Shown one piece after another: positions 1,159 through 62,573 of a DNA stretch of 64,000 nucleotides (the first letter of the stretch is position 1; each line of letters begins with the position of its first letter). Below the pieces are notes generated by a model that saw only the letters and a program-made list of their open reading frames with translations, made no database searches and had not been told where the DNA came from. Source of the DNA: a virus. Taxonomy: Duplodnaviria > Heunggongvirae > Uroviricota > Caudoviricetes. Where the stretch lies: the IMG/VR virus record IMGVR_UViG_3300029702_000002; one strand, 5' to 3'. A program made the translations under genes and the position numbers.

Positions 1159-1695
1159 GTGAACAACCAAATTCATTGGGACTACCCATTCTCAGAAGAA
1201 TTCGGCAGTGGGATGGTACACAGACAATTCACTGTGGGAAGCACTATTTATGCCGTTGGGTTTGAACAAATATTGACGATGGATGATTTCACACGTAAGG
1301 GAGTTGATATCCTAAATGTACATCCAACATTCCGGTTTCCTCTGAGTGGTGTATGGGGAGTGATTTTTGACGAAATTGACCCTGTAGAAATGGATTTCAA
1401 AGGATTTCGGCATATCCAACATCAAGGCTTGGCAGGTGGTCAAGTGCTTTTGAATGTTGCAAGTATAATCTTTGACCATTATACTGTTTGTAACGCAGGA
1501 GCTTATGTCTTCTCCGCCGCAGTCGACCATCAGCATTTACGCAGAACTGACTTGGTAGACATTTACTGTAAGATACTGGGTCTAAATGGAAAACGTAAAA
1601 GTAGATTGTTCGCCAATGGTTTTCCTGGATGGGAGGCATACTGTGATGTACCAACAGGAGGAAGAGGCTATGTCGTCACGACTGAAAGTTATTAA
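1159..1695 (+). CDS. Hypothetical protein (178 aa, GTG start)
   Basis: ORF with stop overlapping the next gene start; no recognisable motif. Confidence 0.45.
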   Translation: MNNQIHWDYPFSEEFGSGMVHRQFTVGSTIYAVGFEQILTMDDFTRKGVDILNVHPTFRFPLSGVWGVIFDEIDPVEMDFKGFRHIQHQGLAGGQVLLNVASIIFDHYTVCNAGAYVFSAAVDHQHLRRTDLVDIYCKILGLNGKRKSRLFANGFPGWEAYCDVPTGGRGYVVTTESY

Positions 1696-3729: not shown

Positions 3730-3805
3730 TGGTGCCGGTTAACGGATTCGAACCGCTGACATCCTGCTTACAAGGCAGGTGCTCTACCAACTGAGCTAAA
3801 CCGGC
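3730..3805 (-). tRNA. tRNA-Thr (anticodon UGU), CCA encoded
   Basis: Acceptor GCCGGTT/AACCGGC, D-arm TAGCTCAGTTGGTAGAGC, anticodon loop CUUGUAA, T-loop TTCGAAT. Confidence 0.9.
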
Positions 3806-3807
3806 AT

Positions 3808-3882
3808 TGGCGATGGTGGGTGGATTCGAACCACCGACCAGTTGGTTAACAGCCAACTGCTCTACCGCTGAGCTACACCATC
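3808..3882 (-). tRNA. tRNA-Asn (anticodon GUU), CCA encoded
   Basis: Acceptor GATGGTG/CACCATC, anticodon stem GTTGG/CCAAC with loop CUGUUAA, T-loop TTCGAAT; 2 nt from tRNA-Thr. Confidence 0.85.
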
Positions 3883-4661: not shown

Positions 4662-4952
4662 TTATTCGGTTGCGACTTTTTTGATCAAGGCCACTCTACG
4701 ACTAGGTGTTCTTGTGATGGTGGCAGTGAATCGTTTCGCTTGGATAGTAATGGTTTCGTTCTCCTTAAGTTGCCCGTAGCGAGTTTCCACCAGGGTGCCA
4801 AGACGCCACAGACCATCATCGATACGTTTATGACTAGCAAATTTAATCAGCAACAGTTTTACGACTAACTGACCTACGTAAAAGGCGAATGCGACTCCGG
4901 CCGCTAAGAAATAGGTGGCCAACCACCAGTCCCAAGAAGTTAAATTGCTCAT
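4662..4952 (-). CDS. Small membrane protein (96 aa, N-terminal hydrophobic segment)
   Basis: ORF start overlaps stop of upstream small ORF (ATGA). Confidence 0.5.
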   Translation of the reverse strand: MSNLTSWDWWLATYFLAAGVAFAFYVGQLVVKLLLIKFASHKRIDDGLWRLGTLVETRYGQLKENETITIQAKRFTATITRTPSRRVALIKKVATE

Positions 4953-5101
4953 TTTCTAACCTTTGTTTCATGAACTACCCGATACACACGCTTTCCGATG
5001 CACAGTGTTTTGGTTTTAAGTTCCTGCTTAATTAAATCACGACAGATGCCGAAGCCGATAAGGAAGCCACCCATAAAAGCTAATGAGATGTATGGAATCA
5101 T
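4949..5101 (-). CDS. Small hydrophobic protein (50 aa, MIPYISLAFMGGFLIGFGIC...)
   Basis: Below ORF-track size cut-off; ATG overlaps upstream stop (ATGA) and own stop overlaps downstream start; AGGAG site 8 nt upstream. Confidence 0.4.
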   Translation of the reverse strand: MIPYISLAFMGGFLIGFGICRDLIKQELKTKTLCIGKRVYRVVHETKVRK

Positions 5102-5313
5102 ATTAACACTCCTGATTCTACTAATTGCTGTAGCAATACTTTCCCTTTATCAGTTAACTGGTAGTTGGCCGAACACCACGTTTCAGAAACGTTTGCAACC
5201 AACCCTAAACGCTCTAACTTAGCTCGCGTTTTAGGCTTCCAGTACTCAGGGAACTCCGGCCACTTACTTATTTCATGAAGCGTTTCTTTCTCCCGTTTAC
5301 TTAATACGATCAT
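5098..5313 (-). CDS. Hypothetical protein (71 aa)
   Basis: Translationally coupled to ligase stop. Confidence 0.5.
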   Translation of the reverse strand: MIVLSKREKETLHEISKWPEFPEYWKPKTRAKLERLGLVANVSETWCSANYQLTDKGKVLLQQLVESGVLI

Positions 5314-6632
5314 TCTTTATCTCCGATTCGATCTTCGGTATCGCGTAAGCAACGCGGCCATTTCAGTCGTGGGTGGCGTAAGCTGCCGTCCGGTGTTTTC
5401 TCGTGACAATGAACCTCAACAATACGACCACGGTACTTCTCTTTGTTGTTCCAGATCTCGTCCAGATATTTATGCTTAATACCGCTCGCACGAACGATGA
5501 CGCCGTTTTCAAGACGAATAACAATTTTTCCAAGTGTGTTGGCAAAACCAGAGTCCGGGTCGCCCGGCTCAAAGTCGATAATTTCACCATCTTCTGAATC
5601 TTCGTCTTTTAACTTCCACCAGCTGCGGGTACGTTTAAACTCGTAAACAGAGTTCGGATCTTTGCCCATCTCCCCTTCTTCGTTATCGTCCAGGCGTTTC
5701 ATGAAGCGTTCGATGAAGTCTTCGTGGCTATGGATGATATAGAACGGATGCAGGTGAATGTCTTGTGTGTAGCCTTCACTGCGATCGTTTTTGAACAACG
5801 CCACCAGCATAGCCAGGCGCTCTTTCAGCTTCATACCTGTCTTTGCATACTCTTTGGATTTAGCCTGTGCTCGCCATTCCGGTAGGAAGAAGTCGAAAAC
5901 ATGATAAATAGCGCCAATTGCCTGCACGTTCTTTTTGCGCAATGCAGATACGGACTGGTTAAATGAACCGGCAGTTCCTTCACCATCGAAGAAGATGTGT
6001 TTGTGGCCTGAAAGTTTGCCTAATTCGAGCATGGCTGGCTTTAGGTGATCGAGAGACGTGATTGGATTACCAGTACGAGAAAGGAAGTTAACCTCTTCCT
6101 CGTCAACAATAACCTCGCAAATTACTCGCAAACCATCGAGCTTAAGACTGCCAATCATCGGCCATTTTGCTTTAGGATTTGGCTTGAAGGGGTATTTGTC
6201 GCCTTTTTCTTTATACGGTGACGCCAGCTGCACCTCGAATTTCGGAATGGGATTTTCAAAAACCTTGTTGCATAGGCTAATCCCAACGCCAGCTTTCGGG
6301 TCTTTTAAGAGGAAACGACGGAACACGTCCTGCCCATCGGCGCACATTGACGCCACGATAGACTCAACAGCTGCTATTGCTGCGTTCCCCGTTAGCTCGC
6401 GAGAGGCCAGCTTATTCAGTACATCAATGGCTTTTTCGTCACTTGGGATGGACTCACTAAGCGGCTCTGCCACTTTGTATTTCTTTACCCCAAAACGGAT
6501 GAAAGGGTTGAGCATCAATGAAACCATGCTTTGTTCAAAGTCATCCATGTTGGCCAATGCCTCTTTTTTTGCATTGGTTCCCATAGCTTTCATTTCGTCC
6601 AGCTTATGCTTAAGTGCGATCAACTTTTTCAT
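5310..6632 (-). CDS. ATP-dependent DNA ligase
   Basis: Adenylation motif I KLDGLR, FDGE motif and WWKLK motif V in 440-aa ORF. Confidence 0.8.
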   Translation of the reverse strand: MKKLIALKHKLDEMKAMGTNAKKEALANMDDFEQSMVSLMLNPFIRFGVKKYKVAEPLSESIPSDEKAIDVLNKLASRELTGNAAIAAVESIVASMCADGQDVFRRFLLKDPKAGVGISLCNKVFENPIPKFEVQLASPYKEKGDKYPFKPNPKAKWPMIGSLKLDGLRVICEVIVDEEEVNFLSRTGNPITSLDHLKPAMLELGKLSGHKHIFFDGEGTAGSFNQSVSALRKKNVQAIGAIYHVFDFFLPEWRAQAKSKEYAKTGMKLKERLAMLVALFKNDRSEGYTQDIHLHPFYIIHSHEDFIERFMKRLDDNEEGEMGKDPNSVYEFKRTRSWWKLKDEDSEDGEIIDFEPGDPDSGFANTLGKIVIRLENGVIVRASGIKHKYLDEIWNNKEKYRGRIVEVHCHEKTPDGSLRHPRLKWPRCLRDTEDRIGDKE

Positions 6633-14341: not shown

Positions 14342-14701
14342 TTAACCTTTCTTCATCAACTCTCGTTTGATTTCATCGGTACGCATCGTGACATCGGCAG
14401 CGGTGATCGCCTCATTCAATTTCACGATGTCCTCGATTTCCTGCGGTGACTTCTCTGCCAGATGGAAAATGGCTGCTCGAATCACGTCAGAACGAGTGAA
14501 CTTCTCGAAGCGAGGGATGAACTTCATCATCTCCAGCAGTTCGAAGTATTCGTCCTCCAGTGACATTGTGCGGCTTTTAATTTTCTCTTTGCCACGAGTC
14601 GGGCGTCCCTGTGGTCTGACTGGTTGGCGCAAAGGAGTTGTGTTCTTAGCCGGTGCATCAGGCTCTTTGCGCTTTGCTAGGTCACCCATTTTCATGGACA
14701 T
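14342..14701 (-). CDS. ParG-like small partition protein (basic N-terminal tail, putative ribbon-helix-helix C-terminus)
   Basis: 119-aa ORF translationally coupled (ATGA) to ParA-like gene. Confidence 0.5.
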   Translation of the reverse strand: MSMKMGDLAKRKEPDAPAKNTTPLRQPVRPQGRPTRGKEKIKSRTMSLEDEYFELLEMMKFIPRFEKFTRSDVIRAAIFHLAEKSPQEIEDIVKLNEAITAADVTMRTDEIKRELMKKG

Positions 14702-15369
14702 TATTCTTCTTCCTCCAGACTCAACAGATAATCTACAAATTCTTCAAACTCGGCTTCCGCCTTTTTGTCGCGCTCGCTACCGGTCATTTCAAAGATAGAA
14801 CGACCAGACTCTTCCGCATCATCATAGACGTTGCGGTTATATAGATTGACTGGCGCAGACTCGATTCCAAACGTCTCAACAATCTCTTTAGCCGCCAGAA
14901 TGCGAGACACTTGTGATGGCAAAGCCGGGCACTGGTTCATGACCGCGCGGACCTTCACTTTATCGTTTACATTGCGAACATTGTCGATAATAGGATCGAT
15001 GTCACGTAAAGATTTCAAATCACGACGCTTAGGACGCAGCGGGATAATGATAACGTCAGCCATCAGCATCGCTTGTCGCTGAATTTCGGAGTCGAAGCCA
15101 CCAGCATCTACCACTACAAACTCAGCTCTACCCTGAAGCGATTTTAGGTGCTTAATGATGTCATCCTGAACGTATGCAAAAGGAATCAGCTCCAGGTCTT
15201 CGTTCTGTCGACGGTCTTCACACCAGCTCGTTGTCGTGCGCTGAATATCTATATCGGTAATATAAACCTTCTTCTTCTTTTTGACTTTCAGGCAAACGGC
15301 AATTTGCTGGGCAACGGTGGATTTGCCAGGCCCGCCCTTTGTGCCGCCAACCACAAAGATCTTGGTCAT
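14701..15369 (-). CDS. ParA/MinD-family partition ATPase
   Basis: Deviant Walker A KIFVVGGTKGGPGKST at N-terminus, 222 aa. Confidence 0.85.
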   Translation of the reverse strand: MTKIFVVGGTKGGPGKSTVAQQIAVCLKVKKKKKVYITDIDIQRTTTSWCEDRRQNEDLELIPFAYVQDDIIKHLKSLQGRAEFVVVDAGGFDSEIQRQAMLMADVIIIPLRPKRRDLKSLRDIDPIIDNVRNVNDKVKVRAVMNQCPALPSQVSRILAAKEIVETFGIESAPVNLYNRNVYDDAEESGRSIFEMTGSERDKKAEAEFEEFVDYLLSLEEEE

Positions 15370-32500: not shown

Positions 32501-34125
32501 ACCATCTGGCTCCCAGCGCCAACTACCCCCATGATCCCTGCTCGCATCAGTTTGAACGCAACCATCGCGGCCACGACCTTACCGAGATTAATTACCAGCT
32601 CTTGGTTCTTTGCTAACCATTGAGCAAGCTGACGCAACCCATCGATTGCCGTTGTTAACCCCGAACCTAAAGAATTGGCAAACGAAATCCCTTCGGCGCT
32701 ATTCATGATTGAAGCCAGTTCTTTCATCCCCTTCGATAGAGAATCCAGATATCCGGCCTGACCAACCCGATCAGCAAATAACGTGAATGACGTCTGAAGT
32801 TGCGCCAGCGCACCTGTGTAGGTTTGCATCATGTCTTTCGCTGCGTTCTCATTCTCCGCACGCAGACCAACAAACATCAGAGACAACGCCTGTTTTGCCT
32901 CAACCGTACCGCTGGCAACGGCTTTAGTCAGTTCCCCCATAGTGATGCCTGCGGCGTCTGCCATTGCCTGCATCGCGTTAGGAACGGCTTCACCTAATTG
33001 CTGACGTAGCTCTTCCATTGACACAACGCCCTTACCGGACATCTGCTGAACGGCCACAGCCGCACGTTTCAACAGCTCACTATCACCACCAAAACGAGCA
33101 ACGGAGTCCACCAGCGCCTTCAGAGAACCATCGGTTGGATCTAAGCCAGCAGAACGAAACTTCACGAAGGAGTCTGTTAACGCCTGCATCGCGAACGGCG
33201 CATTTTGAGCCATGTCTACGATGTACTTCATATCATCAGCGGCAGCCTGGCCCGGGTTGGACTTCTCCTTATTCAACCCTCGAAGCATCACCCGCATACG
33301 TTCCATTTCGGCCGCAGCTTCAACAATAGGCTTCTGCCACCCAAACATGATGTCAGTAACCGTTCTGGCTGCATCTCCGATCTCGCCAAGCAGGAAAATG
33401 TTGCCACGCAGGCCAGAGAACATACCTCCTTCGTTACTTTTACCGCTATGGCCAGAAGCGCCGCTACGCCGCCCGCTACCACCATCACCACTTCCAGATG
33501 TACGAACGCGTACCGGCTTGCTAATCAGTTGCTGACGTCCGATAACTTCGTCCATCTGCTCACGAACCTTTTTCAGTCCCTCGGCAGCCTGACTCGTTGT
33601 GACACCCCAATTACTGAGTCGCTTCGTCGTGGTATTAAGGCGCGTATTCATGCCACTCACGGACGCAGAGGCTTCTTTGACCTCCGTACCAAAGCGGCTT
33701 GCGCTTTTGCTTGCATAGGTCGCCCAATCAGAGAAATCATTTAGCTCTGATTGCACTTTACGTAATGACGCGGTGAGTTTATCTACTGAAGAAGTTGTCG
33801 TATCGACGCGCTCAATCAGGGCTTTAAGGCTGGTGATGTTGCCACGCATTTTACGCGTAGCATCTGAAGCAAGCTCAAAACCGGCAGCTACATCCTGTAG
33901 TTTATCTGCCGTAGAATCGAGCTTGCTTTCCAGAACGCCAATGATACGGGCGACCGAACCCAAAGAGCGTTCAAAGGTTTGGATTTTTTGAGCAGGCTTT
34001 GTTACCTGCTCACCAAATCGAGTAAGCAGTTTCCCCGCACGATCGATTGACGCTGTAAACTGTTTGTCTTCCAGCGACAGGATAAACTCTACGTTTTGTG
34101 ACATTCCCTTGTCATCCTCTGCCAA
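29545..34125 (-). CDS. Tail tape measure protein (1526 aa)
   Basis: Size, coiled-coil-rich N-half, Gly/Ala-rich hydrophobic segments, position upstream of M/L/K/I/J. Confidence 0.9.
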   Translation of the reverse strand: MAEDDKGMSQNVEFILSLEDKQFTASIDRAGKLLTRFGEQVTKPAQKIQTFERSLGSVARIIGVLESKLDSTADKLQDVAAGFELASDATRKMRGNITSLKALIERVDTTTSSVDKLTASLRKVQSELNDFSDWATYASKSASRFGTEVKEASASVSGMNTRLNTTTKRLSNWGVTTSQAAEGLKKVREQMDEVIGRQQLISKPVRVRTSGSGDGGSGRRSGASGHSGKSNEGGMFSGLRGNIFLLGEIGDAARTVTDIMFGWQKPIVEAAAEMERMRVMLRGLNKEKSNPGQAAADDMKYIVDMAQNAPFAMQALTDSFVKFRSAGLDPTDGSLKALVDSVARFGGDSELLKRAAVAVQQMSGKGVVSMEELRQQLGEAVPNAMQAMADAAGITMGELTKAVASGTVEAKQALSLMFVGLRAENENAAKDMMQTYTGALAQLQTSFTLFADRVGQAGYLDSLSKGMKELASIMNSAEGISFANSLGSGLTTAIDGLRQLAQWLAKNQELVINLGKVVAAMVAFKLMRAGIMGVVGAGSQMVSTFATMATAIQTPFNLGATAVTRFNRAARMGLAPIPSLIFAIRGAITGLKGAFAGLTAFIAANPIGAAFTVATVAVAGLITYMTMLRSETSKVVDEIRKIPEAMTAAKRAQMADRAEKLEKQILADQRALKTGEGVNYVSNSAGVITHKESKADIEARLKKNQEEYQKITGTIALGDGAVAKRLAKEAAESQIEKIRAENQIFAATFVKARQEALDKIQKINDDGSLSDDEKNKLLAPLRETVNKSYLEPAQKLVDSLSSRKNATEKQIATLNDQLEKAKKDGNTEQIQKLQGSIRGYQEHLEAVAQELTQAEFERDNAAKTGKGVMSNQGTVLGLGTTDKAAQKALAQYMRNQMDSATYQRTLPDGTPMMDFEGKPIIGPKQLKTQLNLQKASSASSLEKMSDEERAAAIAALTKAREQDAAAAEKAAQRSANASQRAAKKEQAAQQKLAAGYQKALDKADQLMGQMGESSKATVSFDQSLRDTTKSLTDLANAVPNEFITQEMIDKAKKRLEDLKNATPEYREMFNRRNVEQMISTWAPESDSIISAGYTPSREDKVADFEDTYNRNLKALIELRDKASDPKVVALYTKKINQLIAAGNTALIKETGTATQKLALEYENLAEQIESTWTDLFSGLTDVLTDFVINGKMSFSSLSQSILKDITNMVVKSQITLPLMNMLGMGTTAAGSSQSGNLLTGVASAVANQGVRMGNTVNGDKSVGEATKETSSSVTGLGQTTQQTTSAIGTATNAIGSWVSGLFDSTEAKDAETKAVKDSIFSMQNLSSVTGALSAAFAMLGANASGSGNKWLNFGATVASGLVSVWAGGGFDGLMSGSSGSTSGFNNLTSSAADGTNGIPAIPKFANGGIFGKDGVIPLRAYQKGGIANSPQLALFGEGDMNEAYVPLPDGRTIPVTLSTDGMSGGGNVLSPVSIEINVHSDGSTTESGDTESIWNNAAQRMKAIALETIAQEKRPGGSLNPNTQRN

Positions 34126-45006: not shown

Positions 45007-45897
45007 TTATGCCGGTAAAGCAATTTCTAACGGTTTATCCAAAGGTTGTTTGTCGAATGCCAGCAGTGGCAGCGTGTCAGGCAGTCGACGACCAAAGTCA
45101 GGGTTTCGATACACCCCATACAACGGAGACGTAAAGCTCAGGTTGTGAATGTCCTTGAGCAACTTCACAATGCTGGCCTCGTCCACCAGACTGTCGGCAA
45201 TGTCCTGAATCGTCGTGCCACGATTCCGCCCAGCTTTTGCCAGGGAACTGTTCTTATGGTAGTCCGCCACCAGATCACGCAGTGCACGGCGACGACGAGA
45301 CTCGCTCATTGCGAACAACTCTTTGACGATCGCCTCGTTATCACCCGGGTCGGAACGAAAATGGCGCTGGAATACACGCAGTGCACTTTCATAGCTCTTC
45401 GGTCGCTCAGGGCGGATGAACTTAAACCCTGCTTTCATGGCGAAGGGATTGTATTTGCTCATCGAGGACTGGATCTCAATGATTGGCCGGTCATGCATCC
45501 TGCTAACCAGGTTAATCATTCGATAAGAGACGCCTACGCCACGATACTGAGTATCCACAACTGAGCGACTGATCACCGCAAAGTTGTTATTCACGTACCG
45601 ACCCCAGTACTGGTTAGCCACGGTGGTATTAGTGGTTGGTTTCAACTTAGGAAACATGCGGTGGCGAGGTGCCAACAGTAGTTTCGGGTAAGCCATAACC
45701 ACGACGCCCACCAGACGGTCATCAAGTTCGCAGCGATAGTAAGTTGGCGCGAAAGGTTTGCCGTCTGTTTTGTAGTGAAGCGACTTAAGAGCGTGCCAGT
45801 CCTCTACAGTTCCCTTTGTAACAGTCATTCGCTCCAGAAAGTCCAGATGACGCGGAAACTCTTCAGGGCGGTAGCGTTTAATGATGATGTCCGTCAT
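45007..45897 (-). CDS. GNAT-like acetyltransferase-fold protein with C-terminal extension (296 aa)
   Basis: VVDTQYRGVGVSYRMI resembles GNAT motif A (Q/R-x-x-G-x-G/A); 4-nt overlap with upstream ATPase. Confidence 0.45.
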   Translation of the reverse strand: MTDIIIKRYRPEEFPRHLDFLERMTVTKGTVEDWHALKSLHYKTDGKPFAPTYYRCELDDRLVGVVVMAYPKLLLAPRHRMFPKLKPTTNTTVANQYWGRYVNNNFAVISRSVVDTQYRGVGVSYRMINLVSRMHDRPIIEIQSSMSKYNPFAMKAGFKFIRPERPKSYESALRVFQRHFRSDPGDNEAIVKELFAMSESRRRRALRDLVADYHKNSSLAKAGRNRGTTIQDIADSLVDEASIVKLLKDIHNLSFTSPLYGVYRNPDFGRRLPDTLPLLAFDKQPLDKPLEIALPA

Positions 45898-46559
45898 GAA
45901 TGGACCTCATCATGACTACCATTGTGATATTCCACCTTCACGCGTTCTTTGTAGTGCTTGGTGATCTGCATATCCGGGCGCAGCGCGTTCTTCAGGTCTT
46001 CGTGAGTCGTCGCCACCATTACCGTCGCACCAACCTTTCGCGCGGCACGCTGGAGGTTAGACGCCACAACCTGAGCGGTTACACGGTCGAGAACAGCGCC
46101 GAACTCGTCAGCAGCCCACACTTTAGCGCCTGACTCAATCAGTTTGGCAATCTTGAGACGATATTTCTGGCCGTCTGACATTTCAGAAGGCTTGCGAACA
46201 AACAGATATGCATCGTTCAGACCAGCCATAGATAACAACCCAAGCGCATCACTGGTCGTTTTGCCCAACTGATCGATGACGTTAACCTCATTATCGAAGG
46301 TAAAATCATCGATGGAGGCTACAGACAGCCCTTCATCCTTCATCTGTCGTTGCAACTCGCGCAGCACAACGGATTTGCCGGAACCGGATTGGCCGGTGAT
46401 GTACACCACATCGCCCTGCTTCACTTCCAGCTCCAGATTGTCGTAAAGCGTCCACTCTTTTTCGTCCAGGCCAAGCCCGAACGACTCAGCGATTTCCAAC
46501 GTGCGCGTGGTTTTATTTACGCGTGTCTGAAACGATATGTTGATGATGTATTTGCTCAT
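45894..46559 (-). CDS. ABC-type ATPase (single nucleotide-binding domain, 221 aa)
   Basis: Walker A GQSGSGKS, signature-like MSDGQKYR, Walker B VWAADEF, H-loop TTHE. Confidence 0.7.
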   Translation of the reverse strand: MSKYIINISFQTRVNKTTRTLEIAESFGLGLDEKEWTLYDNLELEVKQGDVVYITGQSGSGKSVVLRELQRQMKDEGLSVASIDDFTFDNEVNVIDQLGKTTSDALGLLSMAGLNDAYLFVRKPSEMSDGQKYRLKIAKLIESGAKVWAADEFGAVLDRVTAQVVASNLQRAARKVGATVMVATTHEDLKNALRPDMQITKHYKERVKVEYHNGSHDEVHS

Positions 46560-47224
46560 GCAGCCATCTCCCCGGAAGAGATCTTCTCCGCATATGCCAC
46601 AAATGCGTCTACCCCGCTTTCTCCCGTCATTTCTTCCATATGGGCAAGCAAATCACCAACAACAATGGCAGAGCCAGCAGGGAGCGTTTTAAAGCCCAAT
46701 ACGTCGACAACACGTACTTCTTCCGCTGCAACTTCACGACTGATCTCGGTGTGTTCATCCTTCTGTCGTTTAGTTTCTTCGCCAAGATCGATAACTAGCG
46801 AGTCGGTGTCCATTTCTTCTGTCATACTGCCAACGAGAACATTCAACTCACGCTCTTCAAAGCCGAAAACCTCGATATCGTCCAGAACAAGCGACTCAAG
46901 CTCTTTCTGTAGCTTAATTGCATCGTAATCAATGCTGGCAAGTCGGTTATCTTCAAGGCGCTTCGCACGAACCTCGTCATCACTGAGATCATCGCGAACA
47001 ATAACCGGTACGCGCTCAAGTCCAGCAAAAATTGCAGCCTCACGGCGGCCGTGGCCAGTAATAATTACGTCGTTCTTATCGACCGTAATTGGCTGGTCAA
47101 ATCCGCGCTTTTTAATGGCTGCGGCCAGATCTCGGATCTGCTGTTCATCATGCTTTTTGGCATTCATCTCATAGGGAATAAGATCTGCCGGGTCGCGATA
47201 TACGATTTCAAACTTTTTGGTCAT
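46556..47224 (-). CDS. ParB-like nuclease domain protein
   Basis: ParB N-terminal motif ITGHGRREAA; start at ATG 47224 overlapping upstream stop. Confidence 0.65.
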   Translation of the reverse strand: MTKKFEIVYRDPADLIPYEMNAKKHDEQQIRDLAAAIKKRGFDQPITVDKNDVIITGHGRREAAIFAGLERVPVIVRDDLSDDEVRAKRLEDNRLASIDYDAIKLQKELESLVLDDIEVFGFEERELNVLVGSMTEEMDTDSLVIDLGEETKRQKDEHTEISREVAAEEVRVVDVLGFKTLPAGSAIVVGDLLAHMEEMTGESGVDAFVAYAEKISSGEMAA

Positions 47225-47922
47225 TACATACGCTCCTTGTAGTAGTCGACCAGCCACACCAGAGCCTCACCAGCGTTCTCCATTTCATTACCGGTGTTAA
47301 TAGCCTGCTCTTTGATGATGTTTTTTATGGTTTCTGCAACACGATCTGACGCATCGAAAGTTACTTTGAAGCGCATGGTCTGATGTTCCGCACCCACACG
47401 TTCGGTTTTCTCTCGTTTGTCGGTATCGACAGGCTCATCACTACCACGAGACAACGCCTCCAGTGCTTCAAGGTCGATTGCCGCCTCTTTTGCTAAAACC
47501 ATCGAGATTTCGTCGTCATACGGGGCGATTTCAGACAGTTGATAGTCAAGTTCTGACTGAATTTCTTCAATGAAGCGTTGCAATGCGATTTGGTCGTCTT
47601 CACCGTATCGCTCGTTGTCCACCAGTGACATCTGTTTAGCTACGACATCGCTAATTTTGCCCACAGAAAGCACCGGAACCGTTGAAATTCCTTGCTCAAT
47701 AGCAGCACGCCAGCGATGTTCGCCGCCGAGGATTTCAAAAAATCCATCTTCAAGTTCACGAGCCAAAATTGGCTTAAAAAAGCCCAATTTTTCGATAGAA
47801 CCTTTCAGTTTTTCAAAATTCTGCGCACCAACCGAATTGGTGTTCCAGGTATTCGGGCGAAGGTTGGCAACATCAACCTGCAAAATCGTGATTTTTACAT
47901 CCATTTTATTGCTACAATCCAC
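47224..47922 (-). CDS. ParB-like nuclease domain protein
   Basis: ParB N-terminal motif ILGGEHRWRAA. Confidence 0.65.
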   Translation of the reverse strand: MDCSNKMDVKITILQVDVANLRPNTWNTNSVGAQNFEKLKGSIEKLGFFKPILARELEDGFFEILGGEHRWRAAIEQGISTVPVLSVGKISDVVAKQMSLVDNERYGEDDQIALQRFIEEIQSELDYQLSEIAPYDDEISMVLAKEAAIDLEALEALSRGSDEPVDTDKREKTERVGAEHQTMRFKVTFDASDRVAETIKNIIKEQAINTGNEMENAGEALVWLVDYYKERM

Positions 47923-49852: not shown

Positions 49853-50317
49853 ATGAAGTCTCCCATACTGTTCACTTTCTGTTCTAAAACTATCATGAAA
49901 TACTCGCTTCTCCCTCTACTAACGTTACCAGTGTTGATGCTTACCGCGTGCCAATCACGCCCAATATCAATCCATGACGCCAAACCAGCACCGCAGGCCA
50001 AAGTGTTCAAGTATCAAAGCGCAGCGCCAGCTACGTTGGTGGTAATGAGAGACACAGGTTTTGTAGGAGCTGGATGTGATGCTTCCATTTTCATCAACGG
50101 CGAAACTGTCGCAAAACTGGCTACAGGCGAAAAAGCGACTTTCCATTTAAATGCCGGAGAATTAATTGTGGGTGCATCTCTTGAAGGTGCAGGTTTATGT
50201 GCTCTAAACCCCGCTCGTCAAGAGCGAGAAACGACTCTGAAGAATGGAGACACAAAAGCGTTCAGGGTGTTCACCAGCAATTCTGGTGACATCGACATTC
50301 TGCCAACAACTCTGTGA
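49853..50317 (+). CDS. Lipoprotein (lipobox LTAC)
   Basis: AGGGAGA site before ATG 49853; internal ATG 49895 would give a canonical 19-aa lipoprotein signal peptide. Confidence 0.6.
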   Translation: MKSPILFTFCSKTIMKYSLLPLLTLPVLMLTACQSRPISIHDAKPAPQAKVFKYQSAAPATLVVMRDTGFVGAGCDASIFINGETVAKLATGEKATFHLNAGELIVGASLEGAGLCALNPARQERETTLKNGDTKAFRVFTSNSGDIDILPTTL

Positions 50318-50321
50318 TGAC

Positions 50322-50846
50322 ATGACAACCAAAGATATTACCTACGGTATCCAAGCTGAACTCTGGCCGCGAGATTACACTAACGTTGAAAAACTACTGA
50401 TGTTCTGGCGCAGAGAACAAATTCCTGTAAGGGTCACTCTCGAAGATGGCCAGGCGTTTTGCATGTACGTTTATGGCCTCATGCCATCTCGTAACAAAGT
50501 TGACCTTTGCCCAGCCCCTTTTGACAAAGAAAATCGTATAAGGCTCCCACTTGAACGCATTAGTACAATTGAATCAGGTGTGGTTGACAGTATCGCTCAC
50601 GATTTCAAAGGTCGACTAACAGTTCACCCTGATTATGTCGATAATCGGCCATCACGCCGCGATTTTTTTGCAATTTGCAACCAAGCCTACAAAGCAAACA
50701 AATCTATAAGGGTGTACATGGCGGATGGCCGTGAAATTGAGGGGGTGTCAGCAGGCGCAGATGCTTGTCAGGTTACACTACGTGTCGAGAACGTTAGAAA
50801 AATAGTTGTTTTGTTCGATTGGGTTGAACGAATTTTGCCTTTTTGA
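50322..50846 (+). CDS. Hypothetical cytoplasmic protein (174 aa)
   Basis: ATG 5 nt after lipoprotein stop. Confidence 0.5.
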   Translation: MTTKDITYGIQAELWPRDYTNVEKLLMFWRREQIPVRVTLEDGQAFCMYVYGLMPSRNKVDLCPAPFDKENRIRLPLERISTIESGVVDSIAHDFKGRLTVHPDYVDNRPSRRDFFAICNQAYKANKSIRVYMADGREIEGVSAGADACQVTLRVENVRKIVVLFDWVERILPF

Positions 50847-55994: not shown

Positions 55995-56324
55995 TTACTC
56001 GAATACTTCAAGAAACTCCTGAACGTCCCAATGCTGGACGAGGTGAAGATAGACCTTAGAAATCACGTCATTTTCGCTATCGCATGTGAAGTAGTACTTC
56101 TGGCTGCGGTTGTATGTGTCCACACAAAATTCGCTCATATCCATAAAGTCAGCATCTTCACCCAGGTCGCTGATCATCAAAGCAGGTGCGTCATCACGAG
56201 TCATCAGTTCCAGCACCCATCTTGAATTGATCAGAGTGGAAGACCAACCTTCTAACTCATAAAACTGATCAAACTCTTTTTGAGTTAATTTCTTGATTTG
56301 GTTGATGTCGATATTTGTAAACAT
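55995..56324 (-). CDS. Small acidic hypothetical protein (109 aa)
   Basis: ATG 56324 with AAGGA site; conserved upstream element; 3' hairpin 55968-55986. Confidence 0.5.
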   Translation of the reverse strand: MFTNIDINQIKKLTQKEFDQFYELEGWSSTLINSRWVLELMTRDDAPALMISDLGEDADFMDMSEFCVDTYNRSQKYYFTCDSENDVISKVYLHLVQHWDVQEFLEVFE

Positions 56325-56679
56325 AAAGCAATCCTTAAACAACATGTTTTCTTGATGGTGTTATTATCGCAATAACGCACAGGCGAAAAAGGATTTTGTT
56401 CCGGTGAATGTGGTTTTGGCAGTGAGTTTTCAGGTTCAGTACCGAGTACACTTTTTACATTATTCTGATTTAGTGGCCGAAAGTGGCTGGTGGCAGAGTA
56501 ATCCTCTCCCCAAAAACCTACTGAAATCGATTGTGACCCGTTGGCTGTCTGGCACAATTACGCTGTAGCTGGGCATTCAGAGGGAATCCAGCGGTAAGCA
56601 AGTCCGCCTACGTGAGCGCCTCTCTTCTTCCCGCACATTACAGGTGGGTAGCCGCAACTCTCCCTCTCGCTATACCGGT

Positions 56680-56830
56680 ACGCCACCGTTCCTGAACCGG
56701 CATCGAGCCTTTTCCCGAAATCCACACAGGCAACTCGACCGTTTCCCTGAAAACCTCCAGCCGTTCCCCGAAGGCAACCCAGCCGTTTCTGTAGCGGGAT
56801 GCAGCCTTTTCCCTGTATGGACCGAAGGCT
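56680..56830. repeat. Iteron-like direct repeats (CCGTTTCCCTGAAAACC family), cluster B, 6 copies
   Basis: Six imperfect 20-23-bp units in tandem, same family as 53070-53155. Confidence 0.55.
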
Positions 56831-56859
56831 GACCGTAGGGGTGTTACGGGGGGATAAAA

Positions 56860-57780
56860 TCAGGAGTTGAATAAATACGAAAAAGGAGGCGACACCCCTC
56901 CTTCCCTCCCCACTTATACATACCTGGCTTCTTCGCTATACATGTTGTGTTTTATCTGTCTCAACCTCTCTATAGGCGTTAATGCTCACTCCTTCCAGAA
57001 TGTTCTATACGGCGACTATTTCTGTTGGTGAATTGGGTGTGTTGTTTTCTCTGTCGGTGTATGTGGTTTCGTTCGTTTTGCGGTGGTTCTTCTATGGGGT
57101 GTTCTCGTCGTTTTGGTGATTGTTCTTCTCCGTGTATGGAGTAATGGCAGGTGGGCGATTCCTTTCGTTGTTGTGTTTGAGTTGTTTGTCTGGAGTGTGT
57201 GAAAGGCTTTTGTAGTTATTCGTGTATTGGGTAATGGCGTTTCCCGTGATTGTTATGTTTCGTGTCTTTTGGGATTGAGAGAATCCTTGCGGTTACAGGC
57301 TTCGTTGGGGTTTCAGCGGTTCAGGTGTTTCTTCGCTGTTTGGGTAATGGCGTGTCGTGGGTATCGCGCGTATGAATGTTTTCGGATTGCCTGTGAAAGT
57401 TAGGTTGGTTGTCCGGTAGCCTGGGGAGAAGAGGTGGGTCTTTTCGGTAGCCTGCCATAAAGAGGTTGGTTGTTTTTGGGAATGGCATGTGTGTTATTTA
57501 GTTGTTTTGTTATGCCTGAAAATAAGTTGTTTATATGGTTGTGTAACGCAACGGGAGCGATTTTGAGCGTGTGTTTTTGTTGGTAGTGTGTTGGGTCGTC
57601 TGTGGTGAAAATTGGACGCTGTGGCGCTGTCTGCTGCGTAGCAGTTACGGGTATAAGAAGTGATGTGTGAAAACGTCAATTTTTTAGACCAAATCGGGTG
57701 AAAGCGTTGACGTTTCGTTGATCTGTTATTTAGTTGTTTTCTTATTTGTATAAACAACCATAACCTATTGATATTTAAGG
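56860..57780. repeat. ORF-free GT-skewed region with degenerate direct repeats of about 115 bp (units begin GGGTAATGGCG)
   Basis: Plus strand almost exclusively G/T-rich for about 900 bp; three GG(G/A)GTAATGGC copies and two CGGTAGCCTG copies. Confidence 0.55.
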
Positions 57781-57876
57781 GTATGATTGCAGGTATGGAA
57801 GGGGAGTAGTGGCGATCAACGGATTCTTATAGAAAAGAATCAAATTGTGACCGCCATTATCAATAAGTTGCAACCG

Positions 57877-58446
57877 TTAGTTGTTCAGATAAACATTTGG
57901 AACACGGACGTAGAAGTTCCTGTCACCGGTAAGTTCCAGAGTAATGTTAATGTCATTACCATTGTCTAGTGTAGCCGTTGCTCTATAGAACTTATCCGTC
58001 ACCTTGTCCTCTATTGTCACCTTCATACATTTTGGTGCAGTCGAACCGTTATTCTCTTTCAGAATAGTTGTCACGAGAGGGCAGGCTGCTTCTTCAAGAG
58101 CAACCTCGTCCTTGTGTGGGATGCCGATGAAGATAATCCAAGCCAGCGACGCAACGATTATGATAAATGGCACTCTGCTGCCTTTTGTAATAGTCGCGCG
58201 CTTCCAGAGATAGACAGGCAGGAGGAATACCCCCCATAGAATTGAAGGTGGTTCACAGCCAGACTCCGATAGAGCCATTCTGTCAGCTACTAACAAACCG
58301 ATGGTAGTTACACCCCCAATTATAATAGCGTAATTGGTATACTCTTCCGGCAATACTCCAAAGAAGAAAGGCATGAACGCTAGAATCCACGCATAAATGT
58401 TATTCAGAGGTTTTGTTTGTTGGTTCTGGGTTTCCATCACATCCAT
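57877..58446 (-). CDS. Integral membrane protein (189 aa)
   Basis: Several hydrophobic segments. Confidence 0.5.
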   Translation of the reverse strand: MDVMETQNQQTKPLNNIYAWILAFMPFFFGVLPEEYTNYAIIIGGVTTIGLLVADRMALSESGCEPPSILWGVFLLPVYLWKRATITKGSRVPFIIIVASLAWIIFIGIPHKDEVALEEAACPLVTTILKENNGSTAPKCMKVTIEDKVTDKFYRATATLDNGNDINITLELTGDRNFYVRVPNVYLNN

Positions 58447-59281: not shown

Positions 59282-61315
59282 TTACTTAACCTGGTGGCCT
59301 GGTTTAGCACCAGCATCCGGGCTTAACAGGAAGATATCTTTCCCGCCGGGGCCAGCAGCCATCACCATGCCTTCGGAGATACCGAAGCGCATTTTACGCG
59401 GAGCCAGGTTGGCCACCATAATGGTGTGACGACCAATCAGTGCCTGTGGATCTGGATAAGCGGAACGAATGCCGGAGAAGACATTACGTTTTTCGCCACC
59501 GAGATCCAGCGTCAGGCGAAGCAGTTTGTCAGAACCTTCGACAAACTCCGCGTTTTCAATCAGAGCCACGCGCAGGTCAACTTTGGCGAAGTCGTCAAAG
59601 GTGATGGTTTCCTGAATCGGATCATCTGCCAGTGGGCCAGTTACTGGCGCGGCAGCGGCTTTTACTTCCTCTTTGGATGCTTCCACCAGTGCTTCAACCT
59701 GCTTCATGTCGATGCGGTTATACAGTGCCTTGAACGGATTCACTTTATGGCCCAGCAGCGGTTGCTGGATACCATCCCAGGTCAGTTCTGTATTCAGGAA
59801 TGCTTCTGCACGTTCAGTCAGTTTCGGCAGTACCGGTTTCAGGTACGTCATCAGCACGCGGAACAGGTTAATGCCCATAGAGCAAATCGCCTGCAGATCG
59901 GCATCGCGCCCTTCCTGCTTCGCCACCACCCACGGAGCCTGTTCATCGACATAGCGGTTAGCCAGATCAGCCAGCGCCATGATTTCACGAATCGCTTTAC
60001 CAAATTCGCGGCTTTCCCATGCTTCACCAATCACTTCAGCAGCATCAGTAAAGGTTTTGTACAGTTGCGGGTCAGCCAGTTCGCTTGCCAGCACGCCGTC
60101 AAAACGCTTGTTGATAAAGCCTGCATTACGGGAGGCCAGGTTAACCACTTTGTTCACGATATCGGCATTCACGCGCTGAACGAAATCCTCCAGGTTGAGA
60201 TCGATATCATCAATGCGCGAAGAGAGTTTCGCAGTGTAGTAGTAACGCAGGCTGTCAGCGTCAAAATGATTCAGCCAGGTGCTGGCTTTAATAAAGGTGC
60301 CGCGAGACTTGGACATCTTCGCACCGTTCACCGTCACATAGCCATGAACAAACAGGTTGGTCGGCTTGCGGAAATTGCTGCCTTCCAGCATGGCAGGCCA
60401 GAACAGGCTGTGGAAGTAAACGATATCTTTACCGATGAAGTGGTACAGCTCGGCGGTGGAGTCTTTCTTCCAGTATTCGTCGAAGCTGGTAGTGTCGCCG
60501 CGTTTGTCGCACAGATTCTTGAAGGAACCCATGTAGCCAATCGGCGCGTCCAGCCAGACGTAGAAATATTTGCCCGGTGCGTTCGGAATTTCAAAACCGA
60601 AGTACGGCGCATCGCGGGAGATATCCCACTGTTGCAGGCCAGATTCAAACCACTCCTGCATTTTGTTTGCCACCTGCTCCTGCAACGCACCGCTGCGGGT
60701 CCATGCCTGCAACATTTCGCTGAAAGAAGGCAGATCAAAGAAGAAGTGTTCGGAATCACGCATTACCGGCGTAGCACCAGAAACTACCGATTTCGGCTCG
60801 ATCAGTTCAGTCGGGCTGTAAGTAGCGCCGCAGACTTCACAGTTATCGCCGTATTGATCCGGTGCTTTACATTTCGGGCAGGTGCCTTTCACAAAACGGT
60901 CCGGCAGGAACATGCCTTTTTCCGGATCGTACAGCTGAGAGATGGTGCGGTTTTTAATAAAACCGTTCTCTTTCAGGCGAGTATAGATAAGCTCGGACAA
61001 CTGACGGTTCTCTTCGCTGTGCGTCGAGTGATAGTTGTCATAGCTGATGTTAAAGCCTGCAAAATCAGTCTGGTGTTCCTGACTCATTTCGCCAATCATC
61101 TGTTCCGGTGTGATACCAAGCTGCTGTGCTTTCAGCATGATCGGTGTGCCGTGGGCATCGTCGGCACAGATGAAATTAACCTCGTGGCCGCGCATTCGCT
61201 GGTAACGAACCCAGACATCAGCCTGGATGTGCTCCAGCATATGGCCGAGGTGGATTGAGCCGTTAGCGTACGGCAGCGCGCACGTCACCAGAATTTTCTT
61301 CGCGACTTGGGTCAT
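59282..61315 (-). CDS. metG: Methionine--tRNA ligase
   Basis: Translation from [25 protein letters not shown] (HIGH motif), KMSKS motif, C-terminal ...AKPGHQVK; start placed at internal Met 44 of the 720-aa ORF to give the 677-aa enterobacterial MetG. Confidence 0.95.
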
Positions 61316-61472
61316 AGTAGGCATTACTTCTTTGTAGTGAAAAGGGGCTTGATAGTAACAAAATGGCCTTATGTCTGCCATGTGATAACAGCATTTCTCA
61401 TAAATGATTAAATGTCGTAGCTGGAGTACACTACAAGGCGACAATTGCGCAAATTAAAATAAAGGAGACGGG

Positions 61473-62573
61473 ATGAGCGAGTCCAAATCGCCGGATGCCC
61501 TGAGAGCAATGGTAGCCGGTACGCTGGCTAATTTTCAGCACCCAACCCTGAAACACAACCTGACTACGCTTAAAGCGTTACACCATGTTGCGTTGATGGA
61601 TGACACACTGCATGTCGAACTAATCATGCCTTTCGTGTGGAATAAGCCTTTTGAAGACCTGAAAGAGCAATGTAGTGGTGATCTGCTCCGTATCACTAGC
61701 GCAAAGGCTATTGACTGGAAGCTGTCGTACAACATTGCCACGCTTAAGCGCGTCAAAAACCAACCAGGCATTAATGGCGTGAAGAACATCATTGCGGTCA
61801 GCTCCGGTAAAGGCGGCGTGGGTAAATCCTCCACGGCGGTAAACCTGGCGCTGGCGCTGGCGGCTGAAGGTGCGAAAGTTGGTATTCTGGATGCCGATAT
61901 CTACGGGCCATCAATTCCAACCATGCTGGGCGCGGAAAACCAACGTCCAACCTCACCGGACGGTACTCACATGGCACCTATCATGTCTCATGGCCTGGCA
62001 ACCAATTCAATTGGCTATCTGGTCACCGACGACAATGCAATGGTGTGGCGTGGACCGATGGCCAGCAAGGCGCTGATGCAGATGTTGCAGGAAACACTGT
62101 GGCCTGATCTGGACTATCTCGTTCTCGATATGCCGCCGGGCACTGGTGATATTCAGTTGACGCTGGCGCAGAACATTCCTGTAACTGGTGCGGTTGTGGT
62201 AACTACGCCGCAAGACATCGCGCTGATCGATGCGAAGAAAGGCATTGTGATGTTCGAAAAAGTCGAAGTGCCGGTACTGGGTATCGTCGAAAACATGAGT
62301 GTGCATATTTGCAGTAACTGCGGTCATCACGAGCCAATTTTTGGCACCGGTGGCGCACAGAAACTGGCCGAGAAATACAACACGCAGTTGTTAGGCCAAA
62401 TGCCACTTCATATCTCTCTTCGTGAAGATCTGGATAACGGAACACCAACCGTTATTAGTCGTCCAGATAGCGAATTTACGGCTATTTATCGTGACCTCGC
62501 AGATCGCGTTGCTGCCCAAATGTATTGGCAAGGTGAAGTAATACCTGGCGAAATCGCATTCCGCGCAGTGTGA
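61473..62573 (+). CDS. apbC: Fe-S cluster carrier ATPase ApbC/Mrp
   Basis: AVSSGKGGVGKSSTAVNLALALA Walker A and CxxC motif; near-identical to enterobacterial Mrp by recall; divergent from metG as in E. coli. Confidence 0.95.
   Translation: MSESKSPDALRAMVAGTLANFQHPTLKHNLTTLKALHHVALMDDTLHVELIMPFVWNKPFEDLKEQCSGDLLRITSAKAIDWKLSYNIATLKRVKNQPGINGVKNIIAVSSGKGGVGKSSTAVNLALALAAEGAKVGILDADIYGPSIPTMLGAENQRPTSPDGTHMAPIMSHGLATNSIGYLVTDDNAMVWRGPMASKALMQMLQETLWPDLDYLVLDMPPGTGDIQLTLAQNIPVTGAVVVTTPQDIALIDAKKGIVMFEKVEVPVLGIVENMSVHICSNCGHHEPIFGTGGAQKLAEKYNTQLLGQMPLHISLREDLDNGTPTVISRPDSEFTAIYRDLADRVAAQMYWQGEVIPGEIAFRAV

Follow-up and report, generated by a model that had tools for sequence, protein, structure and literature searches.

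A conserved, gene-free, G+T-skewed block of SSU5/pHCM2-type phage-plasmids, read as a possible Rho-type transcription barrier with accompanying DNA sites

The subject of this study is a gene-free block of ~1.5 kb (~56346-57876) in a window of 64,000 nucleotides (nt), the whole stretch of tailed-phage DNA (Caudoviricetes) analysed from IMG/VR record IMGVR_UViG_3300029702_000002, where it lies between minus-strand genes ending at 56345 and 57877. Its best explanation, judged from sequence, is that it is a conserved, modular, cis-acting intergenic control region and neither a gene nor a structured RNA. On what such a region might do we are more cautious, and lean only tentatively to a Rho-type transcription barrier flanked by protein-binding DNA arrays. 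What is said of function below draws on the sequence and on one published data set from a relative; the analysis shows that the block is non-coding and conserved, how it is built and composed, that its RNA lacks a fold, and that it is silent in a lysogen of a related element, and Rho action, the terminator role of a hairpin and protein binding are what we infer.

What kind of DNA carries the block? The region 56300-57900 is a 100% match to the Escherichia coli plasmid CP057798.1 (108,954 bp) and has 92-98% identity to the Escherichia phages CMS-2020a, Cyrano and PhiR41_1; Salmonella phage SSU5 is matched at 83% over 12% of the query in a near-identity search, and at 68% over 98% of it in a distant search. 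These matches indicate that the source is a circular phage-plasmid of the SSU5/pHCM2 type and not an integrated prophage with ends, so that an earlier note, made from the letters of this DNA, was mistaken in placing the block near a right prophage end. The offset between window and plasmid is 17900 at window 14701-15369 (record 32601-33269) and 17913 at the block, a 13-nt indel placed between 15 and 56 kb separating the two, and the window is therefore a very close relative of CP057798.1 and not that record itself.

The same note had held the region to be free of open reading frames (ORFs), and this stands. The longest within 56346-57876 are 87-90 amino acids (aa), PGAP leaves the interval between the two neighbours empty in CP057798.1 and in most RefSeq relatives, and across a comparison set of 18 lineages, 50-96% identical, ORF positions show no conservation. 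Some submitters did annotate short ORFs inside the block. Pfam and PHROG searches with eight ORF translations gave no match, the eight including the 204-aa open frame of pHCM2, which requires no start (its ATG-, GTG- or TTG-initiated ORF is 186 aa); the scarcity of stop codons in C/A-rich sequence is what gives rise to long ORFs on the minus strand. Of 84 distinct indel events in the 18 lineages just 19 are divisible by 3 (44, 21 and 19 for remainders 1, 2 and 0). Thus a coding or decayed-coding gene was rejected on indel phase, ORF positions and domain searches alike. Small hydrophobic peptides of the type I toxin kind, starting from the ATG inside GGGTAATGGC, were also considered and rejected, as their frames and lengths vary among lineages.

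That the block is non-coding, unusual and probably functional, as had been proposed, is upheld by its conservation across genera. In PLSDB it is present at 67-100% identity in 839 plasmids of at least 10 genera (Klebsiella 431, Escherichia 224, Enterobacter 90, Salmonella 49, including pHCM2, then Citrobacter, Cronobacter, Shigella and others), and among complete E. coli genomes it occurs in 243 of 5426 (4.5%), all on plasmids of ~95-116 kb and none chromosomal. It is the largest gap free of coding sequence seen in the CP057798.1 record. The most conserved 400 bp are 57440-57860, with a mean column identity of 0.8-0.93. A scan of genome contigs with a pattern that was too degenerate gave chance matches only, in GC-rich genomes. 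In those papers on SSU5/pHCM2-type elements that could be searched, a plasmid replicon is mentioned, and there is no account of the block, a lytic origin, termini, an immunity circuit or a cis-acting site.

The argument for a barrier starts with strand composition. The earlier note had described the plus strand of the whole of 56400-57790 as G/T-skewed, and the skew is real, extreme and kept in all lineages, but it is confined to ~56990-57700 (GC skew rising to +0.49 and AT skew falling to -0.56), the left third of that interval (56500-56950) being rich in C, its GC skew negative. G+T reaches 72.6% in the richest 700-bp window, some 8 standard deviations above the plasmid mean of 50.1 +/- 2.8%, and 59.4% in the runner-up; in every lineage the core stays at 67-73%, even where its sequence diverges. 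The flanking genes are co-directional, all being on the minus strand and read right to left, and RNA made by read-through is therefore complementary to the G+T strand. Over the 631 nt of the core that minus-sense RNA is C 33%, G 13%, A 41% and U 14%, a C/G ratio of 2.6, and the two longest stretches on either strand of the plasmid in which C/G is at least 2 in every 78-nt window are its minus-sense 57315-57689 and 57093-57302. Its minimum free energy is -75 kcal/mol, 4.6 standard deviations weaker than the -177 +/- 22 of 120 random plasmid windows, of which the weakest fold has -107; plus-sense core RNA is ordinary at -156. G-quadruplex motifs were looked for, and none turned up. In the 12 lineages tested C/G is 1.7-2.6, and the folding energy per nt lies between -0.12 and -0.20, the background being -0.28 +/- 0.035. 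RNA that is untranslated, rich in C, poor in G and unstructured is the textbook loading substrate for Rho, as at rut sites, and the core has what a Rho-dependent terminator calls for: at least ~80 nt of untranslated RNA with more C than G and little structure.

How might this work? RNA polymerase would exit the variable, lysogeny-expressed accessory gene on the right into the untranslated tract, whose C-rich, G-poor and barely foldable minus-sense RNA would offer Rho a zone to load on (rut), with the hairpin and its U-rich tail (Table 1) as a backstop, and the two together would keep read-through out of the operator-controlled, early-lytic cluster of small genes on the left. Such a barrier, which the earlier note had overlooked, is in our judgement the best account of the skew.

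Expression in a relative can be set beside this. E. coli LF82 carries Cyrano, which is 96% identical to the window at the block, and a re-analysis of GSE154648 gives log2(fpkm+5), with fpkm for fragments per kilobase per million, in five conditions (PMC9928086, table S1). The two ORFs called inside the block, CYRAN_103 (~window 57401-57757, core plus right part) at 2.3-4.3 and CYRAN_104 (over the iteron array described below) at 2.6-4.7, correspond to 0-20 fpkm; the flanks reach 9.2, ~590 fpkm, on the right (CYRAN_102) and 7.8, ~220 fpkm, on the left (CYRAN_105) (PMC9928086). The block is thus transcriptionally silent in that lysogen while both neighbours are on, in a related element with another right-hand gene; CYRAN_102 is scored as a lysogeny-expressed 'moron'.

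Several points weigh against the barrier. At 600 nt it far exceeds the need, as a single intrinsic terminator would suffice, and, save for the removal of structure, it accounts neither for the A-richness and U-poverty nor for the conserved B and C motifs of the core (below). The RNA-seq comes from a relative whose right-hand gene differs, and its strand handling is unconfirmed. Moreover, Cyrano reads are at the floor already within ~120 nt or less of the upstream stop codon (PMC9928086), so that termination or decay may precede the C-rich zone. An intrinsic terminator of the minus-sense RNA is plausible for the hairpin, in which 90.7% of cells pair, many as G-U pairs that only the minus-sense RNA can form; however, its covariation is not significant, 43 of 500 shuffles reaching the score, and slid registers still pair at 61-84% (~80%). 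The likeness to Rho-dependent terminators such as that at lambda tR1 takes in the untranslated, C-rich, G-poor, unstructured RNA, its position downstream of a stop codon and the drop in expression, but those terminators take up ~80-100 nt against ~600 nt here, and the block has conserved repeat motifs. As a barrier leaves the iterons, the B and C motifs and the operator copies unexplained, the block is best read as a composite, in which the DNA sites around and within the barrier (22-bp-phased iterons, B and C motifs, operator copies and half-sites, conserved inverted repeats) probably carry a second function, be it a repressor-controlled start of phage-mode replication or segregation.

Might the block act instead as a structured RNA? 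The earlier note had a non-coding RNA locus among its suggestions, and for a structured one there is no support. Rfam gave nothing at gathering threshold, the best E-value at a lax threshold being 3.2; sliding RNAalifold over 11 lineages and both strands gave z-scores of ~0 throughout the core; and in a consensus fold of the right part in 14 lineages the covariation term is only -1.25 of a total of -19.0 kcal/mol, with nearly all predicted pairs invariant. A structured non-coding RNA was rejected on these grounds, and the lack of covariation in the conserved right part argues for conservation of primary sequence, as for double-stranded DNA that is bound by protein.

The DNA sites fall into several families. 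Array A, a set of six direct repeats in the left part (6 observed, 0.48 expected), has start-to-start spacings of 22, 31, 22, 22 and 22 bp, the same in most lineages, and is thus phased with the helix, as are the 17-22-bp direct repeats of iteron origins. A likeness to the lambda ori iterons (TCCCTGAAAAC) extends to one copy only and was treated as coincidence. To the right of the array, degenerate long units of about 115 bp had been reported. The motif taken to begin them, G(G/A)GTAATGGC, does recur (57139, 57229, 57342 and, degenerate, 57478), but at irregular spacings of 90, 113 and 135 bp; Tandem Repeats Finder gave no ~115-bp array, and the segments between motifs are barely more alike than shuffles (z 0.9-4.6), so the repeat unit is a motif of ~28 nt and not one of ~115 bp. 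This repeat B, TTCTCCGTGTATnGRGTAATGGCR, is in one orientation, with 4 copies in the E. coli lineage and 6 in that of SSU5. In the two copies of repeat C, GTAGCCTG is nearly invariant, where, here and for 'highly conserved' throughout, agreement of at least 88% of the 18 lineages per column is meant; it contains CGGTAGnnTG, the core of the ops element. A resemblance of GGGGATAAA to the tail of a type I-E CRISPR repeat was rejected by eye, there being no matching stem. Motifs A, B and C and the conserved blocks have no other occurrence in the plasmid.

The right part is tied by its motifs to the rest of the element. The palindrome AAACAAnTTGTTT is present 12 times in the window against 0.5 expected (12475, 15405, 44575, 44600, 53715, 54200, 54950, 55853, 56337, 57520, 59134 and 59185), and is placed between the -10 element (GATAAT/TATAAG) and the ribosome-binding site of many minus-strand genes, its promoters including those of small genes left and right of the block, of parA, of a DnaB-like helicase gene and of the terminase operon. 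Probably this palindrome is the master operator of the family, with three candidates for the protein that binds it: the XRE-type repressor beside the integrase, and the ParG-like and FljA-like proteins. A promoter architecture, [G/T]ATAA[T/G]-N9-12-GAAAAC, is found at five places in the window, where 0.28 would be expected; four are early-gene promoters and the fifth is the plus-strand module inside the block, which also holds degenerate early promoter/operator modules in both orientations. Six copies of the half-site GTTGTTT lie in the G+T region, whose own composition predicts 1.0; all are on the plus strand and three of them are conserved. The only two conserved AT-rich patches of the block, 57506-57532 and 57719-57755, both coincide with operator sites, the latter being 72% AT in all lineages and 50-90 bp beyond the promoter-like module. 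The operator copies, half-sites and promoter-like module together argue that the block is wired into the element's main repression circuit. A generic sigma-70 scan of the block gave no promoter on either strand. Further highly conserved blocks of the right part are GGGTATAAGA and GAAAACGTCAA.

Table 1. Features in and at the edges of the gene-free block (window coordinates; strand cells are left empty for features given without one)
Feature	Position	Strand	Details
Promoter/operator module of left-hand small gene	56337-56368	-	GATAAT, ~11 nt, then AGAAAACATGTTGTTT; left boundary of block
Variable left spacer	56400-56680		Small plus-strand gene instead in SSU5, pHCM2 and Enterobacter lineages
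Array A, six direct iterons	56686-56826	+	CC(G/T)TT(T/C)(C/T)C; minus-strand consensus CAGGGAAACGGCTG
Purine-arm/pyrimidine-arm hairpin with U-rich tail	56906-56880	-	Found by terminator scan; foldable in most lineages
G+T-rich core	56990-57620		Plus strand G 33%, T 40%, C 13%, A 14%
Repeat B copy 1	57120-57148	+	TTCTCCGTGTATGGAGTAATGGC
Repeat B copy 2	57210-57238	+	Same motif
Repeat B copy 3	57323-57351	+	Same motif
Repeat B copy 4	57465-57487	+	Degenerate in window (GGGAATGGCA), intact in other lineages (GGGTAATGGC)
Repeat C, two 31-bp copies	57414-57475	+	CGGTAGCCTG-N5-AAGAGGTGGGT-NTTT
Operator half-site and full palindrome copy AAACAAnTTGTTT	57500-57533		Perfect in most lineages; AT-rich patch in all
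Conserved blocks	57544-57570		TAACGCAACG (57544-57553, then GGAGCG in most lineages); TGAGCGT (57564-57570)
Promoter-like module TATAAG-N11-GAAAAC	57652-57674	+	Both elements highly conserved
Inverted repeat ACGTCAA(C) ... (G)TTGACGT	57672-57711		Flanks highly conserved TTTTTAGACCAAATC
Second TGTTATTTAGTTGTTTT copy (first at 57492)	57724-57745		Operator half-site, conserved AT-rich patch; E. coli lineage starts GATCTGTTATTTA
Inverted repeat TGGCGATCA ... TGACCGCCA, internal TCTTATAG	57808-57856		Identical in 17 of 18 lineages

Could the block be where replication starts? As the plasmid's own origin, one form of the origin proposed in the earlier note, it is excluded. The replicon, pieced together from fetched parts of CP057798.1, is a classical RepFIB/P1-like unit with DnaA-box-like sequences, a GATC-rich stretch, repA and flanking lineage-specific iterons (TATGCTGTCAGCGGT); it is at ~108.7-2.0 kb in the coordinates of that record, ~33 kb from the block, and has iterons different from those of array A. 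Its RepA has 50% identity to that of pHCM2, whose RepA iterons differ, whereas the iteron array of the block is conserved. An origin for the phage mode, separate from that of RepA, is another matter, and we take it to be possible and nearly as likely as the barrier. An initiator would act there on the phased iterons and/or the B repeats, and the repressor-controlled plus-strand module, or the two operator sites at 57500-57533 and 57724-57745, might prime or activate into the AT-rich patch; the skew might then come from repeated single-stranded exposure of the plus strand, or offer an easily loaded, structure-free strand. Lytic replication gated by repressor-controlled transcription next to iterons is known in lambda and P1. 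In favour of such an origin are the six iterons with their conserved 22-bp phasing, the other one-orientation repeat families unique to the locus, the master-operator copies and a promoter-like module 50-90 bp from a conserved AT-rich patch. Its being the largest gap seen in the record fits also, and so does the position of the RepA oriR elsewhere in an element that nevertheless encodes DnaE, a DnaB-like helicase, primase, ligase, RNase HI and a UvsW-like helicase as a replisome of its own. An IS100 sits at ~56696, the left edge of the iteron array, in CP057437.1 (39774-41729), a defective derivative of 52 kb from which the virion genes are lost, RepA and ParA being kept. Tolerance of this insertion means that the left edge is dispensable for plasmid maintenance and fits a function that is lytic only. 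Set against such an origin are the absence of a DnaA box (TTWTNCACA) from 56400-57900, the lack of an AT-rich element by the iterons, the conserved AT-rich patches being 700-900 bp away, flanking genes that are not divergent from the block, and a strong G+T skew, which is not a recognised hallmark of origins. Array A has no adjacent or otherwise identifiable initiator gene, its neighbours being PHROGs of unknown function, and no match to the Rep iterons. Much the same balance is seen in the comparison with iteron origins and copy-control arrays (P1 oriR/incA, F oriS, lambda ori), where six direct repeats at two helical turns with conserved spacing are the likeness, and the want of an adjacent rep gene, a DnaA box and an adjoining AT-rich element, with the element's own RepA iterons elsewhere, is the difference. 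T4 oriF and oriG are R-loop origins, made up of a promoter and a downstream unwinding element, to be expected within ~100 bp; the promoter-like module followed 50-90 bp on by a conserved AT-rich patch recalls them, and UvsW-like and RNase HI proteins are encoded, but the putative promoter module of the block faces away from the G+T core.

The other rivals are less probable. A gene for a long non-coding RNA, with an operator-controlled promoter in the right part making a minus-sense, C/A-rich, unstructured RNA of ~650-850 nt in the lytic phase only, would be in keeping with the operator/promoter-like modules at the right end and the terminator-like hairpin at the left end of the core, with repression as the reason for silence in the lysogen, with an exceptional lack of structure that is conserved, and with 4-6 motif copies in a single orientation. 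Such an RNA would end at the 56880 hairpin, its motifs GCCAUUACCC...ACACGGAGAAGAA binding protein or RNA, as in a Rho/Hfq decoy. We think this unlikely: the sigma-70-like promoter scan is negative on both strands, the minus-strand modules are degenerate, no Rfam family matches, and an RNA of that kind should itself meet early Rho termination. Equally unlikely is that the core is the template of a repressor-controlled, lytic-phase minus-sense RNA of this length, kept unstructured on purpose, that with its 4-6 motifs acts as a Rho/Hfq decoy, or that persists as an RNA-DNA hybrid priming the DnaE replisome at the iterons. A partition centromere or incompatibility locus for the ParA/ParG-like pair (window 14342-15369), whose ribbon-helix-helix-like partner would bind the iterons or the half-site cluster, seems more doubtful still. 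From the E. coli lineage to pHCM2 the ParG-like protein keeps 94% identity, so that its site should be conserved, as the repeats are, and beside parA there is just one operator palindrome and no repeat array. However, a type Ib centromere (parH/parC-like) would be a repeat array next to the parA-parG operon and co-regulated with it, whereas 41 kb separate that operon from the block; motifs A, B and C are missing upstream of parA, the skew is left unexplained, and the left part is split by IS100 in the derivative that is nonetheless maintained. Centromere/operator sites that are dispersed are known from pSM19035 (omega protein) and N15 (SopB sites), and the short palindrome at many promoters, including the par promoter and the block, is similar; here, though, it may simply be the operator of the lysogeny repressor. 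Most improbable of these is that the block is made up of decayed early-gene cassettes, or serves for packaging or as a genome end, and regulates nothing at present. The degenerate promoter/operator modules in both orientations and the ORFs called there by some annotators would suit decay, but conserved blocks, repeat phasing and composition across the 18 lineages, and the lack of protein homology, do not. The element's T4-like terminase genes are 12 kb away, and in none of 12 phage records is the block at the record end, on which grounds genome ends or a pac site were rejected.

Beyond the rivals, a further known system comes to mind. The leader consensus of RfaH ops/JUMPStart is GGCGGTAGnnTG, and the two highly conserved CGGTAGCCTG copies match 8 of the 10 specified ops positions. 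They are, however, on the plus strand, without a plus-strand operon following in nearly all lineages and with no upstream plus-strand promoter found. An ops leader of a plus-strand cargo operon was rejected, as 19 of 21 contexts have minus-strand genes to the right; plus-strand genes downstream of the ops-like copies are confined to a Klebsiella-plasmid remnant and one viral contig.

To come back to the barrier, what would it keep apart? The gene to the right of the conserved inverted repeat (window 57877-58446) varies by lineage, with lengths of 132, 172, 189, 208, 244 and 396-412 aa, and its stop is 12-36 bp from that repeat except in a few lineages that have no right-hand gene within ~0.5-0.7 kb. 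By this sequence comparison the right-hand slot reads as a cargo-exchange hotspot bounded by the conserved block. Close to the slot are GIY-YIG nuclease genes in Klebsiella and Enterobacter, and just right of the block the E. coli lineage has as cargo metG, for a host-like methionyl-tRNA synthetase (window 59282-61444, minus strand), and an ApbC/Mrp iron-sulfur carrier gene (61473-62573, plus strand), both missing at that position in SSU5 and pHCM2. The genes on the left are small, on the minus strand and assigned to PHROGs of unknown function, each with an operator-controlled promoter. A variable gene on one side and operator-controlled genes on the other argue that the block divides a cargo slot from repressed early genes. 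A fragment of ~750 bp from the right part persists in many large Klebsiella IncFIB/IncHI1B plasmids (in one of them at 4705-5460 of the plasmid locus, not of the window), truncated by an IS3-family end and lying upstream of a plus-strand DUF262 gene and a type I restriction-modification operon; it looks like a remnant of recombination rather than an independent use.

Some observations concern other parts of the window. A conserved plus-strand Chi site is at 56486-56493 within the left spacer, and Chi (GCTGGTGG) has 16 copies in the window where 1.3 would be expected, a density like that of a host (e.g., 53168, 53882, 54353 and 56486 on the plus strand), several of the plus-strand copies falling in gaps between the minus-strand small genes just left of the block. 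A recombination hotspot made up of Chi and the G+T island was rejected, as the G+T tract is on the side that RecBCD degrades before reaching Chi 56486. The FljA-like gene (50244-50846, plus strand) encodes a protein that matches Pfam Flag1_repress over its full length (E 5e-83; FljA binds RNA and represses the translation of flagellin) and is conserved in the family, where its annotation is merely 'transcriptional regulator'. Upstream of the terminase an operon at 45007-47922 (minus strand) encodes two proteins with ParB N-terminal domains, an ATPase of the ABC type and a 296-aa protein without a Pfam match. Near the integrase end two adjoining tRNA genes (3733-3882, minus strand) score 76 bits each in Rfam. 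An ORF next to the integrase at 1159-1695 (plus strand) has no Pfam match; its homolog CYRAN_43 is ~700-fold above prophage background, with fpkm in the thousands, in the LF82 RNA-seq, and the locus may hold a hidden abundant small RNA or the real immunity factor.

Phage-plasmids of the SSU5/pHCM2/pKpn/pSLy3 type are common, and among them are pHCM2 of Salmonella Typhi and resistance-carrying elements of Klebsiella and Enterobacter. No other conserved non-coding element of the family is as large as the block, and an extreme keto (G+T) skew that persists under sequence drift makes it an unusually clean case of selection on strand composition. A decoy RNA or a priming hybrid, if true, would be a kind of element not described for phage-plasmids. 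The role of the block, once known, would tell how the expression of lysogenic cargo is kept apart from lytic genes and how plasmid replication switches to phage replication, and would provide a defined target for curing, typing and engineering.

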